This document shows positions 5,926-49,321 of a stretch of 62,716 nucleotides of DNA, piece after piece. A program made the position numbers and the translations under genes. The first letter of the stretch is position 1. Every line of letters begins with the position of its first letter. The notes below the pieces were generated by a model. That model did not search any database. It was not told the origin of the DNA and was given only the letters and a program-made list of their open reading frames with translations. This DNA comes from a virus. Lineage: Duplodnaviria; Caudoviricetes. The stretch covers positions 1-62,716 of IMG/VR virus record IMGVR_UViG_3300044613_003165; one strand, written 5' to 3'.

Positions 5926-5954
5926 TTGACTCCTATTAAATTATTTGTTAAATT
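5926..5954 (+). promoter_or_regulatory. sigma70-like promoter TTGACT-N17-TAAATT, near-leaderless to ATG 5962
   Basis: Consensus-like hexamers with 17-nt spacer. Confidence 0.55.
5942..5950 (-). promoter_or_regulatory. Candidate late promoter TAACAAATA (leftmost of 13 copies; all listed in findings)
   Basis: Identical 9-mer oriented towards virion genes. Confidence 0.7.
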
Positions 5955-7670: not shown

Positions 7671-10082
7671 TTATTCTTTCTTATCTTTCATTAATTCTCT
7701 AAAACCAGGGTCTTGTTGTATTAAAAATAACGTAGCGTTACGTTTAATAGGATCTGTAGTTGTTGAAGCTACGTTAAATAAGTTAGTTAGCTTTTTAGCG
7801 CTTTCTGTATCTTTTACTTTAGAAATTACTTCTTTACTTAGATTTTGTAGTTCTTTAGGCGTAGACTTGCTTAAAAAATTACTAAGGTTTTGTGCCGATC
7901 TTTTAACGGCTCCTGTGGCCCTTCCTAGTTGATTTGGTACTACATCTAATATAGCAGGTGTTTGTTTTAAAATTTGAGCAGGAGCATCTTGCGTTGCGGC
8001 AATGTTACTTAAGTCTATGTTATATAGATCGGCTTTTTCTAAGGCTTTTGACGCACCACCAATAAGTTCTTCGCCTCTTTCTTCACCAAAAGCTTTTTTG
8101 GCTATGTTTTGAGCACTCTCAAAATCTTTACCAGATTTTACATTGGGTTTAAAGGGTACTTCTAGTGTGCTAATTGTTTTTTGTGGGGTAATTACCTGTA
8201 ATTCTTCTTCTAATAGATCTTGTCTTCCTAGTAATTTTTCTAAGCTTTGAAATCTTTTTTGTTGTTGTAATAAATCTTTAGGAGTGCTTATGTCTATTTC
8301 TTGTTTAAGTAATTTTTTAGCTTCGGAATCGTCAATTTTAGACTTATTTATTATTTCAAATAAATCTGGTCTTTGGGTTTTTAGTAATTCATTCGCTCTT
8401 TCATTTACTTGTTTTTCAGTTATATTTAATTGTTTAGCAATTCTAGCTTTTTCTGCCGAACTTAAAACGCCTTTTTCTAGGGAATCGGCTAATTCCTGGT
8501 CTAGCACTTTAGCTGCTTGGGTAATAGGAGCTTCTATAAAAGTTCTTCCTAATTCTCTTTGACCGGCGACTTTATCACCGAATTCTACAATATCAATAGG
8601 AAATAATTTATCACTTGCTTTTTGTGAATAGTTACCTAATGTATCTTCTAATAAAAATAAATTTTTAAAACTATTGTTAATCCCTTTTAGTTCAGGTATG
8701 TTTTCTCCGATTTTATTGTCAATAGAAGTGTAAACTTCTAAAAATAATCTTCTCTGTTCATTAGGTAGATTTTTTGCTGTTTGATATATAAATTGTTTTA
8801 ATCCTTTAAATTGTTCTGGATCTAGTTTTTTAGCAAACCAAGAATCAAGATTACCTGAAATAGCGTCTAATTGTGCCGCTTGGTCTGGTCTAAGATTTAC
8901 TTTATAGTTGCCTAGGCTTGTTCTAAGTTGGTCTATTTCGTCGCTAAAATCTAATTTTACATTACTATTTTTAGTAATACGTCCGTATTCTTTGGTTAAG
9001 CCGTCTCGTGTTTTATTTATTTTTTGTGCTAGATTAACCGCTTCTTTTTCAAGTTTTTCATTAGCTTGTTTAATTCCAGCTTCTTTACCTTGTTCTAAAA
9101 CTTGTCTAGTTTGTTGTCTAGATTTTTGAAGTAGGTCTTCAAGCTCTTTTCTAGCTAAGTCGATATTTTCATTATGCTTAGCTACTTGTTCTTGTACTCG
9201 TAATTCAGCTTGCTTCTTAGCTGCTTCAATACCTTCTTCTGTTACCTTTTTACCTTCAACAATGGCATTACCTAAATCATCTAATTTTTTATAAGCTTCT
9301 TTTTGAACTTGTACTTGTTGTTCAGGATCAAGAATATTTCCGCCTTGTTGTCCTAAATCAAATTGTTTACCAGCCCTAGTGCCTATGTTACTTCGTGAAA
9401 TAGCGTTACTTGCGCCTTGTAAACCGTATTTAGCTAAAATACCAGCAGTAGCTCCACCGCCTATTTTAGCAGCTTTTTCTAGTAAGCTATCATCTTCGTT
9501 AATTAATTGAGAACCGCCGTAAGCTCCTAATCCTCCGGCTACTACGTTACCTGTACCAACTTTACCTACTGCTCCAGGTAAAACTCCGCCTAATACGGCT
9601 CCTGTAGCGGTGTCTCTAACAATTTCTCCTGCTGTATCACCTTCAGAGTATCCAAATCCTGCCGCTGCACCTTCTGCTGCACCTAAAGCGGCTATGCCTT
9701 TAGCACCTAAAGCTCCACCTTTAGCTAAAGCTGTAGCTCCTCCGGTTGCAAGTGTAGAGGCTAAACCTCCGGCTACGTTACCTAAAAATGCTGTTTTAGG
9801 ATTAGCTTCTTCACTGGCTTTAAAAGCTTGTCTAGATTCATCACGTTCTTCTGTGTAAAGTTCAGGTAAATCAGCTAGAGTTTTATCAGTAAAAGCTACG
9901 TCTTTTAGTGCTCCTGCCGCACCTGCTATTTCATCGGCTAATCCAAAACTAGCACCTTGTGCTGCGCCTCTTAGAAAAGATTCGGTCTTAGAAATAGAAT
10001 TATCTACTTCTTCGAATGGTTGACTTTCGTCAAAAGTAATCTCTTCAAATGGTAGCGATTCATCGAATTTTGGATCTGCCAT
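7671..10082 (-). CDS. Large internal virion / ejection protein
   Basis: GAAQGASFGLADEIAGA and Gly/Ala-rich membrane-like helices, then long helical region; start MADPKF after SD GAGGA. Confidence 0.6.
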   Translation of the reverse strand: MADPKFDESLPFEEITFDESQPFEEVDNSISKTESFLRGAAQGASFGLADEIAGAAGALKDVAFTDKTLADLPELYTEERDESRQAFKASEEANPKTAFLGNVAGGLASTLATGGATALAKGGALGAKGIAALGAAEGAAAGFGYSEGDTAGEIVRDTATGAVLGGVLPGAVGKVGTGNVVAGGLGAYGGSQLINEDDSLLEKAAKIGGGATAGILAKYGLQGASNAISRSNIGTRAGKQFDLGQQGGNILDPEQQVQVQKEAYKKLDDLGNAIVEGKKVTEEGIEAAKKQAELRVQEQVAKHNENIDLARKELEDLLQKSRQQTRQVLEQGKEAGIKQANEKLEKEAVNLAQKINKTRDGLTKEYGRITKNSNVKLDFSDEIDQLRTSLGNYKVNLRPDQAAQLDAISGNLDSWFAKKLDPEQFKGLKQFIYQTAKNLPNEQRRLFLEVYTSIDNKIGENIPELKGINNSFKNLFLLEDTLGNYSQKASDKLFPIDIVEFGDKVAGQRELGRTFIEAPITQAAKVLDQELADSLEKGVLSSAEKARIAKQLNITEKQVNERANELLKTQRPDLFEIINKSKIDDSEAKKLLKQEIDISTPKDLLQQQKRFQSLEKLLGRQDLLEEELQVITPQKTISTLEVPFKPNVKSGKDFESAQNIAKKAFGEERGEELIGGASKALEKADLYNIDLSNIAATQDAPAQILKQTPAILDVVPNQLGRATGAVKRSAQNLSNFLSKSTPKELQNLSKEVISKVKDTESAKKLTNLFNVASTTTDPIKRNATLFLIQQDPGFRELMKDKKE

Positions 10083-24044: not shown

Positions 24045-24364
24045 TAAATTAACCCTAACTTAAATAATACGTCTAAAACTATATATAAACTTGTAACAAC
24101 TAAACTTAATTTTGCTATTTTTGGTGTTTTATAAAGAACTAGTTTTGGTTCTTTTTTATTAGAGCGTTTTTTATCGTCTAAATATGCTATTTTGTTATTT
24201 TTTAAAATCCACTTTTCAGGAGGAATTCCTGATGTTGTGGTTAAATCGGGATTAACCAAAAAGGGAATTTTATCTTGTCTTAGTGCTTGTATAAAGTCCT
24301 CACCAGGATTAACATAAATCCTAGCTCCTACTTCTTTTTTAAACACTATTACTTTATCTTTCAT
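24044..24364 (-). CDS. Hypothetical protein with C-terminal TM
   Basis: Late motif upstream; hydrophobic C-terminus. Confidence 0.5.
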   Translation of the reverse strand: MKDKVIVFKKEVGARIYVNPGEDFIQALRQDKIPFLVNPDLTTTSGIPPEKWILKNNKIAYLDDKKRSNKKEPKLVLYKTPKIAKLSLVVTSLYIVLDVLFKLGLI

Positions 24365-24402
24365 GGTTAAACCCTTATATTTATTTGTTAATAGGGTAAA
24401 AG

Positions 24403-24440
24403 ATATAAAGAGACTAGGTAAATAAACCTAATCCCTTTAT
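24403..24440 (-). terminator. Hairpin / probable intrinsic terminator after fibre gene
   Basis: ATAAAGGGATTAGG-loop-CCTAGTCTCTTTAT on minus strand with G-U pairs, T-rich tail. Confidence 0.55.
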
Positions 24441-24453
24441 TTTCAAGTATTTA

Positions 24454-39683: not shown

Positions 39684-41171
39684 TTATTTCTTTTTAATAA
39701 AAATGTCTTTTATAACTTGGGCAGTTTCAGTCAAGTCATTGATATTACGGTAAAATGTGTCTTTTGATAATCCGTAGTTTCTAGGATAGGGATTTTTACG
39801 CCAATCTATATTACGCACTAAATAAATGGCCGCGTCTATTAGGTCGTAGTGGCCGCCTTCTGGCGATCTATCATAGCTTTTCTTGTTTTTAGCCCAAGTA
39901 GCGTTTTTTAATTGAAATATAAAATTTTTACATTTAGGATTAATTATAATTTGTTTATTAGCTATTCGATCTCTAAAATCGTTTAATGCTGCTGATTTTT
40001 CATCTTTTCTAGTTAGAGCAAAGGATAGCTCATAAGTAGAAATCATTTCGTTTAATGCAATCTGTTCGTTATTATCAGCTATTCTTTTAGTAACAGGTAA
40101 TACCTTATTAGTTTTGGGATCTGTCCAAAGCTCTTTCTCTTTTTCTATAATAGCATTGGCTATAGTTGAAACTCTGGCTTGCTGACCATTAAATAAAAGT
40201 TCATCTTCTACAACTAGTTTAGCGTTTCTAAAATCATAATACGCGAATAATATAGCAGTAAAGTCCTTTACACCTAAGTCCATAGAAACATAAGTATCAA
40301 AACGAGGAGGTTTTATCCAACTATGTACTATTTCCGATTCTAGCTCATTAGTAAATTCAGGAATCACGCTATATTCTTCATTAGTAACAATTTCACACAA
40401 ATATTCGCGTTTCCAGTCGTTTGGTTTAGTTACTTTTCTAAGTCTTTCTACTTCTTCTGGAGCTAGTCTGTCTCTGAGGTAGGCTGGATCGCTTTTTACT
40501 TGTTCAAGGTACTCATAAATGCTCATTTTAATATAAGCGTTATCAAACTGAGCGTTTTTAATAAAATCTACTAGATCATGGCTTGCTGATTTAGGCGGAG
40601 AAGAAACTATTAGGATTCTTCCCTTGGTTGTCGATGTCATAGGCAATAGAACGGCGTTTACTGCGTATTCTAGATCATCTACGAATCCTGCTTCATCAAC
40701 AATAATTAAATTAGCTGGAGTTCCTCGTAAATCGTCAGCTTTTCCACCATCCAAACCTTCAATGTATAAAATAGAACCGTTATTAAAATTATAACAACCT
40801 TCTATTCGATTAAATGACGGTCTGATGTCTTTTGGGCACTCTTGTAGTATCTTTCTTAGAGTTGGTCTTAGGATTTTACCTACCGCTTTAGCTTGACCGG
40901 CACAATATTTCACTTGACAATTAGGTGTAGATAGACAAGTTTCTAGTGCTAGAGTAATAAGTGTGAATGATTTACCAATTTGCCTAGAGCAGTTCCAAAC
41001 TGTTACCTTATGGTCATTTCTTTTGTATTTATTGTATAGTTTCTTTTGAGCGGAGTCTAGTTTCCAGTGTAATACGCCACGACGCCACAATATTTCCGTA
41101 GCTTCTAGCTCGGTCATTTCTTTTAACGCCGGAAATGCGTCAAAATTATACTTTTTCTCCGTTGTCGTCAT
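39684..41171 (-). CDS. Terminase large subunit
   Basis: Walker A CSRQIGKS, LRG...IIVDEAG, motif III SSP, nuclease MDLG..D and HYDLIDA. Confidence 0.92.
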   Translation of the reverse strand: MTTTEKKYNFDAFPALKEMTELEATEILWRRGVLHWKLDSAQKKLYNKYKRNDHKVTVWNCSRQIGKSFTLITLALETCLSTPNCQVKYCAGQAKAVGKILRPTLRKILQECPKDIRPSFNRIEGCYNFNNGSILYIEGLDGGKADDLRGTPANLIIVDEAGFVDDLEYAVNAVLLPMTSTTKGRILIVSSPPKSASHDLVDFIKNAQFDNAYIKMSIYEYLEQVKSDPAYLRDRLAPEEVERLRKVTKPNDWKREYLCEIVTNEEYSVIPEFTNELESEIVHSWIKPPRFDTYVSMDLGVKDFTAILFAYYDFRNAKLVVEDELLFNGQQARVSTIANAIIEKEKELWTDPKTNKVLPVTKRIADNNEQIALNEMISTYELSFALTRKDEKSAALNDFRDRIANKQIIINPKCKNFIFQLKNATWAKNKKSYDRSPEGGHYDLIDAAIYLVRNIDWRKNPYPRNYGLSKDTFYRNINDLTETAQVIKDIFIKKK

Positions 41172-41442
41172 TATTACCTGATTTATCCTCAATTACTTTA
41201 GAAATAATTACATCGGTCGGGATGCTTTCGCGCTCTTCTTCTAGCTTTTTGAACTTAGCTTCGATAATGCCAGTAGCTTCACCCTTAGAAATCTGTAAAT
41301 TCTTAACTAACATATCGTAAATCTTAACTTCTTCTAGAGTTAGCGATCTTTCTTTAGCTTTTTCTAGTAAAATATTAAGTTGCATCTCAGCAATAGCTTG
41401 TGCTGGTGTAGGCTCTATAATAATTTCCTTTTTCTTAGACAT
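41146..41442 (-). CDS. Hypothetical protein, candidate terminase small subunit
   Basis: Helical ORF overlapping the start of the large subunit (positional inference). Confidence 0.4.
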   Translation of the reverse strand: MSKKKEIIIEPTPAQAIAEMQLNILLEKAKERSLTLEEVKIYDMLVKNLQISKGEATGIIEAKFKKLEEERESIPTDVIISKVIEDKSGNNDDNGEKV

Positions 41443-41445
41443 TTT

Positions 41446-41691
41446 TTACACTTTTCTAATCATACCTAACGCTGAAATTCGAGACTCTAGCGATTTAATA
41501 CGTTCTTCGTAACTAGAAACGTCTTTTAATCGTTTTTCTTGTTGCTCTAGCTTATTTTTTTCAAATTCTTTGTAAGCTTTAAACGCTAAAAGAAAACCTA
41601 CGCTAAAAGATGACGCTAAAGTAAACCCTACTACAAAAGAATGCACTAGTACCGACGTAACTAGTACGTCAGCTAATTCAATTTTTTTCAT
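41446..41691 (-). CDS. Membrane protein with coiled coil
   Basis: Hydrophobic N-half, coiled-coil C-half. Confidence 0.5.
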   Translation of the reverse strand: MKKIELADVLVTSVLVHSFVVGFTLASSFSVGFLLAFKAYKEFEKNKLEQQEKRLKDVSSYEERIKSLESRISALGMIRKV

Positions 41692-41696
41692 TTTTA

Positions 41697-41960
41697 TTAA
41701 CCCTCTTGAGCTTTTTTAGCTTGTTGTTCTAAAATCCAAGGATGTTTTAGTAATTGATCGTATGATTGCTTGTACATATCACGTAAATGATCTACGAGTT
41801 TATCAACTACTTTACTAGCCTTACCTGGAAATTGACCTTCCATTACAGCGCGATGCATTTCTGCAAATTCACCGGCAATTTTTGCTAGTTGTTTTACGTC
41901 CTCTGGACGAGGATCTACGATTTGTTCTTCTTGAGGGACAGGAAGTTCTTGTTCTGACAT
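41697..41960 (-). CDS. Hypothetical protein, first gene of the packaging operon
   Basis: SD AAGGA; late motif at 42108. Confidence 0.55.
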   Translation of the reverse strand: MSEQELPVPQEEQIVDPRPEDVKQLAKIAGEFAEMHRAVMEGQFPGKASKVVDKLVDHLRDMYKQSYDQLLKHPWILEQQAKKAQEG

Positions 41961-42183
41961 GTTAATTTTCCTTTCTTGTAGGGTAGGATTATACCGCCCT
42001 AAAACAAGTTAAGTTAAAATCTCGTAGTTTACTGTCGTAGCTTATATTCTAGCTTAATTTAAAGCTAATTCCGGCTCACCGGCTTACCTACCGTTACTAC
42101 TTACATATATTTGTTATGCTTTTAGATAACCAGCTTAAAATAAAATATTTGACTTTTACGCCTATACATGTTAAATAATATAT

Positions 42184-42575
42184 AAGCCCATAAAAGGGCC
42201 TACTAGTTTTTGGTTCCCTAGTATGAGCTAGTCCGCTAGTATAAAAAGGACTCTGGGGTGACGCTCTAAAGGATACTTGACCTAGAGAAAAGGGCTTGGT
42301 GTAACCGATACAAAGACCCAACCAAGTAATGCTCTATAAAAGTACGCCTTTAATATAGCCCAGTAAATAGTTAGTTTATAACACTAAGCGGGTATAAACC
42401 TCCCGACCGTCGCTTTTCGGTAGCTCCGGTTAACGTCCCGACTTTTATTAGATCTAGTCAAAACAGGTACTAGATAATCTTAGTGTTAGACTTGCTAGTC
42501 TGGGTGCCTAGGTTCTAAAAAGCCGCTTCCCTGGGTAAGGGACGGTAGTGGGTCTTATTGTCTAAATTAGGACTA
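42184..42575 (+). ncRNA. Candidate large structured ncRNA
   Basis: ORF-poor, GC-richer; nested long-range helices; TTGACT-N17-TAAATA promoter at 42149-42177. Confidence 0.55.
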
Positions 42576-42623
42576 AGTAAATTAGTGCTTTACAGGATAA
42601 ACTCAGGGTGATAGATTGGGTAT

Positions 42624-42905
42624 ATGAGTGCAAAAGAACTAGAGTTATCGCTTATTAATTCGTTTATTGAAAGTGCTGAAAAGATTAGGGACGAAGAAAA
42701 TCCAGATAAGGTTAGCGGGTATTTAATGATTTTAGCATTACATAATCTAGCTATGGCATCTTTTCTAGAACTTAGTGCTAAAGAAATTGATAAAGACAAA
42801 TTAAATCAACAAATTGAGATTGTATTAGAAGAATTAACTAAACGTAAGATGCAAATTGAAAACGTTAATGGTATTATTTACAAAGGTCCAAAAGGAGAGG
42901 CTTAA
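42624..42905 (+). CDS. Hypothetical protein
   Basis: Coupled (TAATG) to the AAA gene. Confidence 0.55.
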   Translation: MSAKELELSLINSFIESAEKIRDEENPDKVSGYLMILALHNLAMASFLELSAKEIDKDKLNQQIEIVLEELTKRKMQIENVNGIIYKGPKGEA

Positions 42906-43897
42906 TGGCTGGTAAGTACGTTTTAGAAAAGGCTCACAAAGTAGAAAACTTTAAAGTAGGAGATGAGTTATTAGAATCGGATTTTTCTCATTTTAATAAT
43001 GATACTTTTTATCAATGGAAATATATTCCAGACAAAGAAGAACAAGACTTTTTAGAGATTACTCCTGGTTGTTGGCGTTTTGAACATAAAGAGTCTGATA
43101 TCGTTTTAAGGAAAGCACACTTTACTAAAAATAATAAACTATTAGAAGAATACATTCATACTAAAAACTTAACCGATAAAATTGATAGTTTTTTTAATAA
43201 ACTAGACGTATATAAAAAATACGAGGTGTTTCCTAAAAGGGGTATTCTTTTACACGGCCCTCAAGGAACAGGTAAAAGCCAAATTATCTCTAAGATTTCG
43301 GAAACATATTTAAACGATCCTAACACCGCTGTACTTATTTGGCCTACCGACAAGTTTAAAGCTAGAGACATTAACTATTCTCTACAGGTAATGAAATATA
43401 CTAATGTAGATAAATTAATTTTAGTTATTGAGGATATTGGTGGAGTATCGGTAAAAACAGAAGGCCAGCAATTAGCGGTAGAACCCAGTCTGCTTAACTT
43501 GCTTGATAATACTCAAGATACATTTAAAATAGCTACGCTTATTATAGCAACAACTAACTTCCCAGAAAACCTTTTACAAAATCTATCTAATAGACCACAA
43601 AGATTTGATTACTTATATAAAGTAGATAATCCTAGCTCTGAATTCAGATCTAAATTTTTAGAATTTTTTAGTCTAAATAAAGCTTCAGAAGAAGAACTTA
43701 AGCTTATTGCTCATAAAAAATATGATAAGTTTAGCGTAGCACATATTAAAGAAGTAGTTATTCGTTCTGAATTACACGATATTAGTATTAAAGAAAGTAT
43801 GAATGAACTACTAAAACAATCTGAATTAAGCGCTAATCAATTTCAAGCAGAAAAAAATAAAGTAGGCATTGGAAGTAGTTTTGACGATTATGAATAA
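42905..43897 (+). CDS. Classic-clade AAA ATPase (FtsH/Cdc48-like module, no protease domain)
   Basis: RGILLHGPQGTGKS, VIEDI, ATTN, RPQRFD arginine finger. Confidence 0.85.
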   Translation: MAGKYVLEKAHKVENFKVGDELLESDFSHFNNDTFYQWKYIPDKEEQDFLEITPGCWRFEHKESDIVLRKAHFTKNNKLLEEYIHTKNLTDKIDSFFNKLDVYKKYEVFPKRGILLHGPQGTGKSQIISKISETYLNDPNTAVLIWPTDKFKARDINYSLQVMKYTNVDKLILVIEDIGGVSVKTEGQQLAVEPSLLNLLDNTQDTFKIATLIIATTNFPENLLQNLSNRPQRFDYLYKVDNPSSEFRSKFLEFFSLNKASEEELKLIAHKKYDKFSVAHIKEVVIRSELHDISIKESMNELLKQSELSANQFQAEKNKVGIGSSFDDYE

Positions 43898-45128: not shown

Positions 45129-45442
45129 AACCCGTACTTTTTAGTCATTTGATCTTTATGTTCTTTAGCGTGTTCAGGAGTGCAAAATAAACGGTATGGG
45201 TTATCTGATTGGTACTCGACCTTACATAACATACACTTTAAAGTATAAACTTCTAGTTTAGCCTCTTTAGGTTTGCCGCTTCCTGTAATTCTACAGACTC
45301 GTTCCGCGTTACACTCTGGACAAAGCTTACCCATCCAAATAATACCCTTATCGTCTTTGTATAAAGATCGACCTTGTTTATTTAAATGACTAAATATCCT
45401 AGGCTTTTCAATACCACAAGCTTTACATTTACATGTTGACAT
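45125..45442 (-). CDS. Zn-binding protein (multiple CxxC)
   Basis: CKAC, CPEC, CMLC, C...H; preceded by late motif at 45451. Confidence 0.6.
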   Translation of the reverse strand: MSTCKCKACGIEKPRIFSHLNKQGRSLYKDDKGIIWMGKLCPECNAERVCRITGSGKPKEAKLEVYTLKCMLCKVEYQSDNPYRLFCTPEHAKEHKDQMTKKYGF

Positions 45443-45471
45443 TACCTATATATTTGTTATATTTAAGTGAG

Positions 45472-47724: not shown

Positions 47725-47784
47725 CTTACCAATCTACCACATAATCCTACAAACCGCAACACTAAACCTGGTTTACCAACGACT

Positions 47785-47818
47785 CAAACCCTACCCAAAC
47801 CCTACCCAAACCCTAACC
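47785..47818. repeat. Telomere-like 11-bp tandem repeat (CAAACCCTACC); five G3 tracts on minus strand
   Basis: caaaccctacccaaaccctacccaaaccctaacc. Confidence 0.8.
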
Positions 47819-48234
47819 TCGTATAACCGCCTATACGCCTCTATAAACGCTAAATGTTTAAACCCTAGCCTACCCCGCACGTACCCCTAACTTATATAAG
47901 CCTATAGCCCTATAATCCATTTATTACGCCTAGGTTAGTATAGCCGCTTAACGCTTACAAGCCCCTTACCTATTCACAACTTGATTTACAACTAACTTAA
48001 CCCAAATGGTTGTAAAAGTGGTTGTATAAGTACATCGGTTACGTAGATATTACCATAAAAACGGTAATACGTACACTTATAGTATACCAAAGGTTTATTA
48101 TAGCCCTTAGGATACAAACGCTTATAAACTATAGGGTTTTTATAGCCCTGGGCTTACAAGCGCGAAAAAAGGGAGATAAGCGTGAGTGACAGTATAAATA
48201 TAAATTTGGTTGTAGGTTACTCCTACCCCCCACT

Positions 48235-48326
48235 TGGCACGGTTTTTGCTATATGCAAAAACTATGCCTGCCTATTTACAAGAACTTTACGCAAGAATTG
48301 TACCAAGACCTGGCACGGTTTTTGCT
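48235..48326. promoter_or_regulatory. Cluster of four sigma54 (-24/-12) elements, orientation + - - +
   Basis: TGGCACGGTTTTTGCT (48235-50 and 48311-26), AGGCATAGTTTTTGCA (48269-54), TGGTACAATTCTTGCG (48305-290); all GG-N10-GC. Confidence 0.75.
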
Positions 48327-48518
48327 ACGCGTATACCTCCTATATAATGGGCTCAGAACTCGAGTGACCTTAACAAGATCTTAACAGAATTTTTGTAAAC
48401 ACTTTGGGCAGGGGTGTCAAAAAATAAACGCTTGAAATCATTGACGATTCACGCAACCTTAACAAAAATGTACAAAAGTTCGACACCACAGTTTCGTGCA
48501 ACCCATTGAATTTACAGG

Positions 48519-48534
48519 TGGCACAGCGCGTGCA
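48519..48534 (+). promoter_or_regulatory. sigma54-type promoter for a leaderless mRNA starting near ATG 48546
   Basis: TGGCACAGCGCGTGCA; IHF-like CAACCCATTGAAT at 48499. Confidence 0.6.
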
Positions 48535-48545
48535 ATTACCTAAGT

Positions 48546-48737
48546 ATGAACAACGAACAAGTGACCGAACACAAGTCAAAGGCCGAGGCAATCAAGTACC
48601 TCAAGGCTAAGGGCTACGAGTACACCGAACGCAATGACTTTGGCGATTGCGCGTGGCTCTACAGCAACGAAAATTATGCAATGCTTAGCTACAACAACAA
48701 AAATACAGTGACTATAGTAGAGGCAAAAAAACACTAG
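48546..48737 (+). CDS. Early hypothetical protein
   Basis: ORF directly after sigma54 element; no SD. Confidence 0.55.
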   Translation: MNNEQVTEHKSKAEAIKYLKAKGYEYTERNDFGDCAWLYSNENYAMLSYNNKNTVTIVEAKKH

Positions 48738-48764
48738 TTCCGCTTAACAACAAAGGGGGAAATC

Positions 48765-48995
48765 ATGGGAACAAAAACACAAGTCATTGAATTCATTGAA
48801 CACAACGAAATTGATGTGCGGACATTGAGTCTAGTTGACGACGATCCCGAGTTCGGGACAAGTGACATTAGTGACATTGAGGGCGACCTCTGTACTGTTG
48901 AGGCCTTGACTTTGGATGGGCTTGAGTTCAATTTTCAAATACTGAATGGCGGAAAAGAATTTGATATCATCGGCAAGTTGGCCGGATGGTTTTGA
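48765..48995 (+). CDS. Early acidic hypothetical protein
   Basis: SD AAGGGGG; very acidic. Confidence 0.6.
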   Translation: MGTKTQVIEFIEHNEIDVRTLSLVDDDPEFGTSDISDIEGDLCTVEALTLDGLEFNFQILNGGKEFDIIGKLAGWF

Positions 48996-49021
48996 ACACA
49001 AAAATTGTAGGGAGTCAAGCA

Positions 49022-49129
49022 ATGAACACAAAAAAATTCAAAGGTAAAATTATCCGAATCAAAGGCCCCATCAAATTGTGCAGCATCGCTAAACTCAAGG
49101 CATTGGGCTTTGTAGTTATAATGGCATAG
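49022..49129 (+). CDS. 35-aa basic peptide (not in ORF track)
   Basis: SD GGAG; fills gap in operon. Confidence 0.5.
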   Translation: MNTKKFKGKIIRIKGPIKLCSIAKLKALGFVVIMA

Positions 49130-49138
49130 GGAGGATTT

Positions 49139-49321
49139 ATGAACAAAAATAGAGCTATTGAATTAGTGACATCACTTCTAAACGACATGGACTTATGGCA
49201 AGGCGAGCATGCGGAGTTCGATCACTTGTTAAGTCAAGGCGTGGCAATGCTCGAATTAGGGTATACATTAGGGCAAGTAGATGAGTGCCTTAATAATAAA
49301 ATTCAAGACTTGGCCGCCTAG
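49139..49321 (+). CDS. Early hypothetical protein
   Basis: SD GGAGG. Confidence 0.6.
   Translation: MNKNRAIELVTSLLNDMDLWQGEHAEFDHLLSQGVAMLELGYTLGQVDECLNNKIQDLAA

Follow-up and report, generated by a model that had tools for sequence, protein, structure and literature searches.

The early region of phage T7 combines the host-type promoters A1-A3 with a leader of several hundred nucleotides and an RNase III site before gene 0.3. The nut and put leader RNAs of phages lambda and HK022 make RNA polymerase terminator-resistant, put being a pair of stem-loops of ~70 nt and nut consisting of boxA and boxB. At the DNA level, the trp operator of Escherichia coli is a palindromic operator of the ACTAGT type, and variable slots in phage genomes are where host-takeover cargo is kept. 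GOLLD and ROOL are described (PMC2864571, PMC12286853) as large ornate structured RNAs that are often phage-borne, GOLLD having first been seen in lake metagenomes.

The locus analysed here is compared with these systems below. It lies in a linear virus record of 62.7 kb from IMG/VR (CheckV completeness 76%), all 62,716 nt of which were analysed and are referred to as the window; close variants of this phage are present in 18 runs, lake and freshwater metagenomes among them, and no RNA run is listed as carrying it. Between its packaging and early operons lies a non-coding insert that we read, with a probability of roughly 0.4, as a lineage-specific, selected and structured 5' leader of the early operon. 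A first-pass annotation of this DNA had proposed either a novel large RNA or an elaborate leader of the AAA operon. The leader half of that proposal gains from the insert being non-coding, constrained and followed by no terminator; against the proposal stand the lack of a matching RNA family and of any compensatory change.

Layout of the divergent gap

The intergenic gap (41961-42623, 663 nt) separates packaging genes on the minus strand from early genes on the plus strand. To its left, the minus-strand operon comprises ORFs of 87, 81 and 98 aa (the 87-aa ORF starting at 41960), the large terminase gene (TerL, 39684-41192) and a P22-type portal gene; to its right, the plus-strand early operon begins with a 93-aa ORF at 42624, followed by an AAA ATPase (42905-43897), a dUTPase (44709) and other genes. 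Divergent promoters alone do not require the extra length of the gap, since the other divergent gaps of the window measure 43 and 76 nt (by subtraction from the ORF list). The earlier claim that the gap holds no credible ORF was borne out: each of its six frames contains 15-22 stops, with TAA, TAG and TGA all present in every frame, so that a hidden ORF, whether standard or recoded, was rejected. Also rejected were a retron and CRISPR-like or ToxI-like repeats, there being no reverse transcriptase gene beside the gap and no tandem repeats within it. The GC content of 42184-42560 is 43.8%, versus 36.5% for the window. The features of the gap, and the first gene beyond it, are as follows.

41988-42017, minus strand: sigma-70-like promoter TTAACT-18-TATAAT facing the packaging operon (10/12, consensus match only)
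42071-42095, minus strand: hairpin CCGG-CTCA-CCGG (42071-42082) with the adjoining CTTACCTACCGTT (42083-95), from alignment with relatives
42106-42117, minus strand: recurring motif ATAACAAATATA pointing at the packaging operon, from a motif scan; candidate late-type promoter or leader element
42149-42177, plus strand: candidate promoter P1, TTGACT-17-TAAATA, with TG two bases before the -10 (read by eye)
42184-42309, plus strand: 5' part of the candidate RNA (segment fold -32.8 kcal/mol), with predicted hairpins GCCC/GGGC (42186-99), TACTAG/CTAGTA, AGTCC/GGACT and CTCTA/TAGAG
42202-42241: CTAGT cluster 1, four sites
42310-42560, plus strand: predicted multibranched domain of 251 nt (-73.1 kcal/mol, z -2.61)
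42452-42475, strand unassigned: inverted repeat ATCTAGT-N10-ACTAGAT, RNA hairpin or candidate operator; CTAGT cluster 2 consists of this repeat and GCTAGTC at 42494
42589-42617, plus strand: candidate promoter P2, TTTACA-17-TAGATT, with TG (promoter scan)
42624-42905, plus strand: first ORF of the early operon, 93 aa (three-helix model, mean pLDDT 68)

The left ~160 nt would serve the packaging operon, to which we assign them because of the promoter at 42017-41988, the ATAACAAATATA motif and the small conserved hairpin; the idea of the gap as a candidate-RNA locus has to be narrowed to that extent, this part being the packaging operon's own control region. The block at 42071-42095 is the only one in the gap that can be aligned with relatives. 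Its stem (42071-42082) is CCCA/TGGG in the two syntenic relatives described below (L082 and G001), two pairs being altered on both sides, and the GGAAT beside the hairpin (minus-strand reading) is invariant in all four aligned phages. Scanning the window for the ATAACAAATATA motif gave 26 matches with at most one mismatch, 12 of which read WTAACAAATA (e.g. at 5942, 14314, 19997, 24382, 27390, 31935, 31952, 36483, 39674 and 42108). All but one of these 12 are found in spacers between ORFs or at ORF ends, and they run in the same orientation as the next ORF, the portal and several structural genes included, at a distance of 5-33 nt from the downstream gene and sometimes further. L082 and another relative, L068, carry the motif in their gaps as well. 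We regard WTAACAAATA as a candidate for a phage-specific late promoter or a leader element.

On the early side, the promoter that had been proposed at 42149-42177 is present as a sequence, but its -10 is poor (it fits at three of six positions and lacks the final T) and it does not appear in the list produced by the promoter scan. P2 is the sole plus-strand promoter listed by that scan inside the gap. The end of P2 lies 6 nt ahead of the ATG at 42624 with no Shine-Dalgarno sequence in between, for which reason the mRNA of the first ORF may be leaderless; a Shine-Dalgarno sequence is present at most other genes of the window. No terminator-like site was found by a scan of the plus strand from 42177 to 42624, and no U run comes after the hairpin at 42522-42546. 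The only terminator-like site in the gap is on the minus strand (42203-42182, GGCCC/GGGCT and then a T/A-rich tail), just inside the 5' end of the candidate RNA; read on the plus strand, this hairpin would be the 5' stem-loop of a P1 transcript. As to the 93-aa protein, a domain search revealed no DNA-binding domain, and its three-helix model lacks the distinctiveness and certainty that a fold search would need.

The best sigma-70-like match in the right half of the window is at 45436-45463 (TTGACA-16-TATATT with TG, 11/12). It overlaps the starts of two mutually overlapping ORFs, at 45433 (plus strand) and 45442 (minus strand), as well as a ATAACAAATATA motif on the opposite strand, and the gene calls there need care.

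Folding, homologue searches and natural variation

All of the helices quoted in the first-pass annotation were found in place, and most of them recur in minimum-free-energy folds. The outer helix of the multibranched domain is 42313-20/42549-56. Within it, the core (42358-42505) is closed in the predicted fold by an irregular stem of ~24 pairs with internal loops, which includes a perfect 10-bp helix, TAACACTAAG/CTTAGTGTTA, detected also as inverted repeat I5; as read in the plus-strand fold, the closing stem has three G-U pairs and no A-C mismatches. For 42180-42600, the plus strand gave z = -1.91 (a fold as good in 4 of 100 shuffles) and the minus strand z = -0.34 (34 of 100). For the 251-nt domain (42310-42560) only 2 of 200 shuffles were as good as the plus strand, versus 14 of 200 for the minus strand (z = -1.62). 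A natural background was provided by 2500 windows of 251 nt from the contig (1250 positions, both strands), with energy regressed on composition; the best window of the gap, 42351-42601 on the plus strand, ranks 53rd, which places it in the top 2% and makes it no outlier. Thus, the plus strand does fold better than its shuffles, as had been required of it, but by a small margin, and the fold is strand-biased towards plus and moderately non-random.

The strongest local fold of the contig among the same 2500 windows is at 24201-24451 on the minus strand (residual z = -4.84), taking in both the 24044-24364 gene and the spacer that lies below a 682-aa gene. The second-strongest signal is also on the minus strand, at 47951-48351 (residual z ~-4).

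The stretch belongs to no known RNA family. Rfam covariance models gave no match at the gathering score in the whole window, and at E ≤ 10 only three chance-level matches in 41900-42700, the best two scoring 20.9 and 20.7 bits versus cut-offs of 47 and 50; the weak matches (rimP-leader, tsr24) sit on one minus-strand hairpin, 42182-42203. ARAGORN predicted no tRNA or tmRNA gene in the window. The families covered by the Rfam models include riboswitches, ribozymes, 6S, GOLLD, ROOL, HEARO, introns and sRNAs, which agrees with the view that the candidate is neither a tRNA or tmRNA nor an intron. One relative, L006, carries a group I intron (RF00028, 94.3 bits, E = 1e-22) at 8178-8390 on its plus strand, downstream of the terminase region.

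Homologues were sought at several distances. The window showed no similarity to GenBank phages by blastn; tblastn with TerL and the AAA protein gave only distant matches in phages (at most 31% identity), and no relatives of the AAA protein were found in IMG/VR. TerL has many metagenomic relatives, the nearest 60% identical (P0001-P0008, encoded on Logan contigs, at 52-60%), and 111 loci were compared on this basis: 80 from IMG/VR (the best 80 of 188, at most 50% TerL identity) and 31 from metagenomes. Searches of the gap by nhmmer and blastn against the 80 IMG/VR loci returned chance-level short matches only. Among the 31 metagenome loci there was one weak match (E = 0.08), in L082 (TerL 57% identical), which maps to 42033-42120 of the window, left of P1. 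The candidate RNA stretch itself has no sequence similarity in the 111 related loci, and an exact pattern of its 31-nt core had no match in viral contigs and none in genome contigs. A covariance model of the core (R1, 42355-42508), in which the window stretch was entered twice so that its basis is a single sequence, recovered only itself from 100 sources (890,330 bases), with nothing in the 99 related loci. With filters off, the nine nearest loci gave 39 matches at E ≤ 10, none of them credible (best 15.5 bits, E = 0.03, outside the gap). The homologues in related phages for which the annotation had hoped were thus found neither by R1 nor by Rfam.

Natural variation was read from a variant of the locus, a single contig of 3671 nt from run X4, which over 41200-43588 shows 75 differences and no gaps (3% divergence); the constraint is estimated from this contig, those from runs X3, X7 and X9 being short, near-identical or partial. 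The 40 differences listed run in order from 41233 to 42605, and the other 35 fit the density expected for 42606-43588. On this density argument the list of changes in the intergenic gap was taken to be complete, though an unlisted one is possible. In the left coding flank, 22 changes are synonymous and 3 non-synonymous (pS 0.138, pN 0.005). Among the changes listed, 15 fall in the 663-nt gap versus 91 expected at pS; the corresponding figures are 13 versus 57 for 42184-42600, 4 versus 29 for the 210 nt between the CTAGT clusters (42242-42451) and 0 versus 15 for 42379-42487, and none of those listed falls in 41961-42167. The constraint is significant (P < 1e-7) and still so with the neutral rate halved (P ≤ 1e-3). 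Judged from these substitution rates, the gap stretch is functional and under strong purifying selection, since it evolves ~4x slower than synonymous sites, and because it is about as constrained as the neighbouring genes a functionless spacer or decaying pseudogene is ruled out.

The same changes bear on strand and structure. Applied to the 251-nt domain, they leave the predicted fold nearly unchanged (base-pair distance 3). In the plus-strand segment folds, 6 of the 13 changes keep a pair, 2 break terminal pairs and 5 are unpaired (P = 0.07 for at least six kept, by permutation of positions); for the minus-strand fold the same 13 changes give 2 kept and 5 broken (P = 0.83). Other choices of structure gave P values of 0.03-0.28, and we do not count these pairing tests as significant. 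All six pair-keeping changes are wobble replacements (A-U/G-U or C-G/U-G), and the changes at 42488-42490 resemble one shift event, so that the number of independent events is smaller. No double-sided compensatory change is seen in the candidate fold; the covariation that had been suggested as a check was therefore not seen, the changes in this single close variant being one-sided only. Overall, the variation in X4 leans weakly towards an RNA of the plus strand and does not amount to a demonstration.

The slot in related phages and the readings of the insert

The first early ORF of L082 is a 90-aa weak homologue of the 93-aa ORF (25% identity, E = 7e-4), and its order is this ORF, a 504-nt gap, small ORFs and TerL. 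In G001 (the record behind locus L002) a 325-aa ORF, an AAA homologue as judged by eye from the DNA, comes after a 93-aa homologue. Both have a candidate promoter in the place of P1 (TTGACA-18-TATAAT in L082, TTGACA-16-TAAAGT in G001) and another in the place of P2 (TTGACA-17-TATACT-7-ATG and TTGTCA-17-TAGGAT-6-ATG, respectively), all read by eye. The P2 elements lie at 42589-42626 of the window, 3013-2956 (minus strand) of L082 and 3918-3881 (minus strand) of L114 of G001; in all three phages the -10 ends 6-7 nt before the ATG without a Shine-Dalgarno sequence, which suggests a conserved leaderless early mRNA. P1 lies 446 nt from the ATG in the window; in L082 the distance is ~257 nt and in G001 ~59 nt (the last figure presumes that nothing is missing between the ends of the record). 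With a slot of these sizes in its relatives, the fold is not a family feature, and from these alignments the candidate RNA is lineage-specific and occupies a slot that varies in content. Folding of the L082 gap does not exceed chance expectation (z = -1.35 and -0.56). In ten more distant relatives the divergent gap measures ~330-512 nt where it is long and down to 27 nt elsewhere. In rough tests with 20 shuffles the relatives' gaps averaged z ~-2.1 for the early direction and ~-1.6 for the opposite one; refolding two of the more strongly folded gaps in the early direction with 100 shuffles gave -4.13 for L068 and -2.98 for L004.

In the leader reading, the gap would be a control region between the late packaging operon (minus strand) and the early operon (plus strand), whose right 470 nt would hold P1 upstream and P2 abutting the first ORF, with a GC-enriched, lineage-specific insert of ~380 nt (42184-42560) between the two. 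Polymerase starting at P1 would transcribe the insert and continue into the 93-aa ORF without terminating, giving two forms of early mRNA, one from P1 with a long 5' leader and one from P2 without any. The leader would fold into the 5' hairpins and the branched 251-nt domain with its long irregular closing stem, and the fold might tune the output of the early operon, the most plausible routes being an effect on the stability or processing of the mRNA (a double-strand RNase site) or the binding of a factor from phage or host; the CTAGT palindromes that it contains may double as DNA operators. The insert is indeed placed as a 5' leader would be, between promoter and first ORF, on the coding strand and with no terminator, provided that P1 is active.

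The main rival, in our view possible but less likely, is control at the DNA level: a phage regulator would bind CTAGT-type operators between P1 and P2, in two clusters ~250 bp apart, possibly looping the DNA, and thereby shut the early promoters or time the early-to-late switch, the RNA helices being a by-product of inverted operator half-sites. CTAGT does occur eight times in the gap versus 2.35 expected (P = 0.003) and five times in the gap of L082 versus 1.06 (P = 0.003), and the densest 450-nt window of the contig, with nine sites, is in the gap. TACTAGT-like palindromes adjoin P1 in the window, L082 and G001 (read by eye); the inverted pairs TACTAG-N11-CTAGTA and ATCTAGT-N10-ACTAGAT, both among the hairpins quoted in the annotation, are similarly spaced; and no CTAGT core is altered in X4 among the changes listed. 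GCTAGTC, however, is not over-represented in the window (5 versus 5.8 expected), and the adjacent 93-aa protein offers no recognizable DNA-binding domain. An operator array would accommodate a lineage-specific sequence, because operators co-evolve with their regulator, and also the relatives' gaps that fold well on both strands (z with 20 shuffles of -4.25/-2.98 for L004, -5.11/-3.91 for L068 and -2.75/-2.85 for L008), as inverted DNA repeats would; inverted repeats are indeed present in relatives' gaps. Pure DNA symmetry would not give the plus-strand bias of fold and variation seen here. The closing stem with its G-U pairs and no A-C mismatches on that strand also speaks against this reading, as does the constraint, which extends beyond the sites into the 210 nt between the clusters. 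Constraint, GC content and fold would equally suit a stand-alone or processed stable RNA of ~250-400 nt made from P1, and an upstream RNA need not be a leader, because P2 gives the first ORF its own promoter. The insert would then be a new lineage-restricted non-coding RNA gene in a variable cargo slot, made at the start of infection, released by processing or through a non-canonical 3' end and acting in trans against the host, a decoy for a defence or RNA-binding protein being one example, and it would fall into no described RNA class. The content of the slot between P1 and P2 varies between relatives as that of a cargo or moron-like gene would. We nevertheless regard this as improbable: the plus strand has no terminator before the first ORF, which is why a leader is favoured over a separate RNA gene, the one late hairpin (42522-42546) lacks a U run, and there are neither homologues (in GenBank phages, Rfam, the 99 loci or contig pattern searches) nor covariation.

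The gap also lies directly upstream of the packaging operon, where a packaging recognition site or genome end (pac or cos-like) might be found; its repeated short motifs and tight constraint would suit terminase binding sites, and G001, an 88-kb linear record that is 100% complete by CheckV, has both of its ends in the corresponding gap, one of them 185 nt before the packaging ORFs (L113 1-185) and the other 117 nt before the 93-aa homologue (L114 3884-4000). These ends mark either the physical terminus of the genome or a point where assembly broke at a hairpin, since the break falls at a palindrome (CAGTAC...GTACTG) that can also stop an assembler. Only one of the five complete relatives checked ends there, three having direct terminal repeats elsewhere and the linear G002 carrying the gap internally, and the candidate sites of the window are on the early-operon side, away from the packaging genes; we hold this explanation to be very unlikely. 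Least weight of all goes to a replication origin or a chance-structured spacer. The gap is a point of divergent transcription, the cumulative GC skew dips locally near 42 kb and two short direct repeats (D3 and D4) are found in the gap. Clear iterons, however, lie elsewhere (an 11-nt unit, AAACCCTACCC, in three to four tandem copies at 47775-47828), those repeats of the gap come in two copies and not as at least three phased direct repeats, and a chance spacer is excluded by the constraint.

The AAACCCTACCC units belong to a second, larger divergent gap of 1.5 kb (47725-49280), which has no ORF of at least 80 aa, a GC content of 41%, further repeats and no Rfam match, and is located at the global minimum of cumulative GC skew. 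This is probably the replication origin, and there may also be an RNA there.

Comparison with described systems

The DNA-level features of the locus are similar to trp-type operators in that (T)ACTAGT(A) palindromes are repeated beside a promoter in three related phages. They differ in that the candidate sites reach far beyond a normal operator region. With the nut and put RNAs, which act in cis on polymerase, the leader that we propose would share the position of a structured RNA just downstream of an early promoter; nothing comparable to the put stem-loops or to boxA and boxB was identified in it.

In comparison to GOLLD and ROOL, the candidate is much smaller, no homologue family was found for it, no tRNA genes are present in the window and Rfam, whose models include both, gave no match. 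The resemblance is that of a large structured RNA candidate carried by a phage, variants of which occur in lake and freshwater runs. If the fold is functional, this would be one more uncultured freshwater phage in which a sizeable structured RNA heads the early genes, and that RNA would occupy a slot whose content differs between relatives.

The early region of T7 differs from the present one, in which there is one weak upstream promoter match and the first ORF, with a promoter of its own directly before it, looks leaderless. The two have in common sigma-70-type early promoter(s), a long untranslated stretch before the first early gene and, within that stretch, an irregular double-stranded stem some two helical turns long, predicted in our case. 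By analogy with T7, the ~24-pair stem closing 42358-42505 may be a candidate processing site of the RNase III type.
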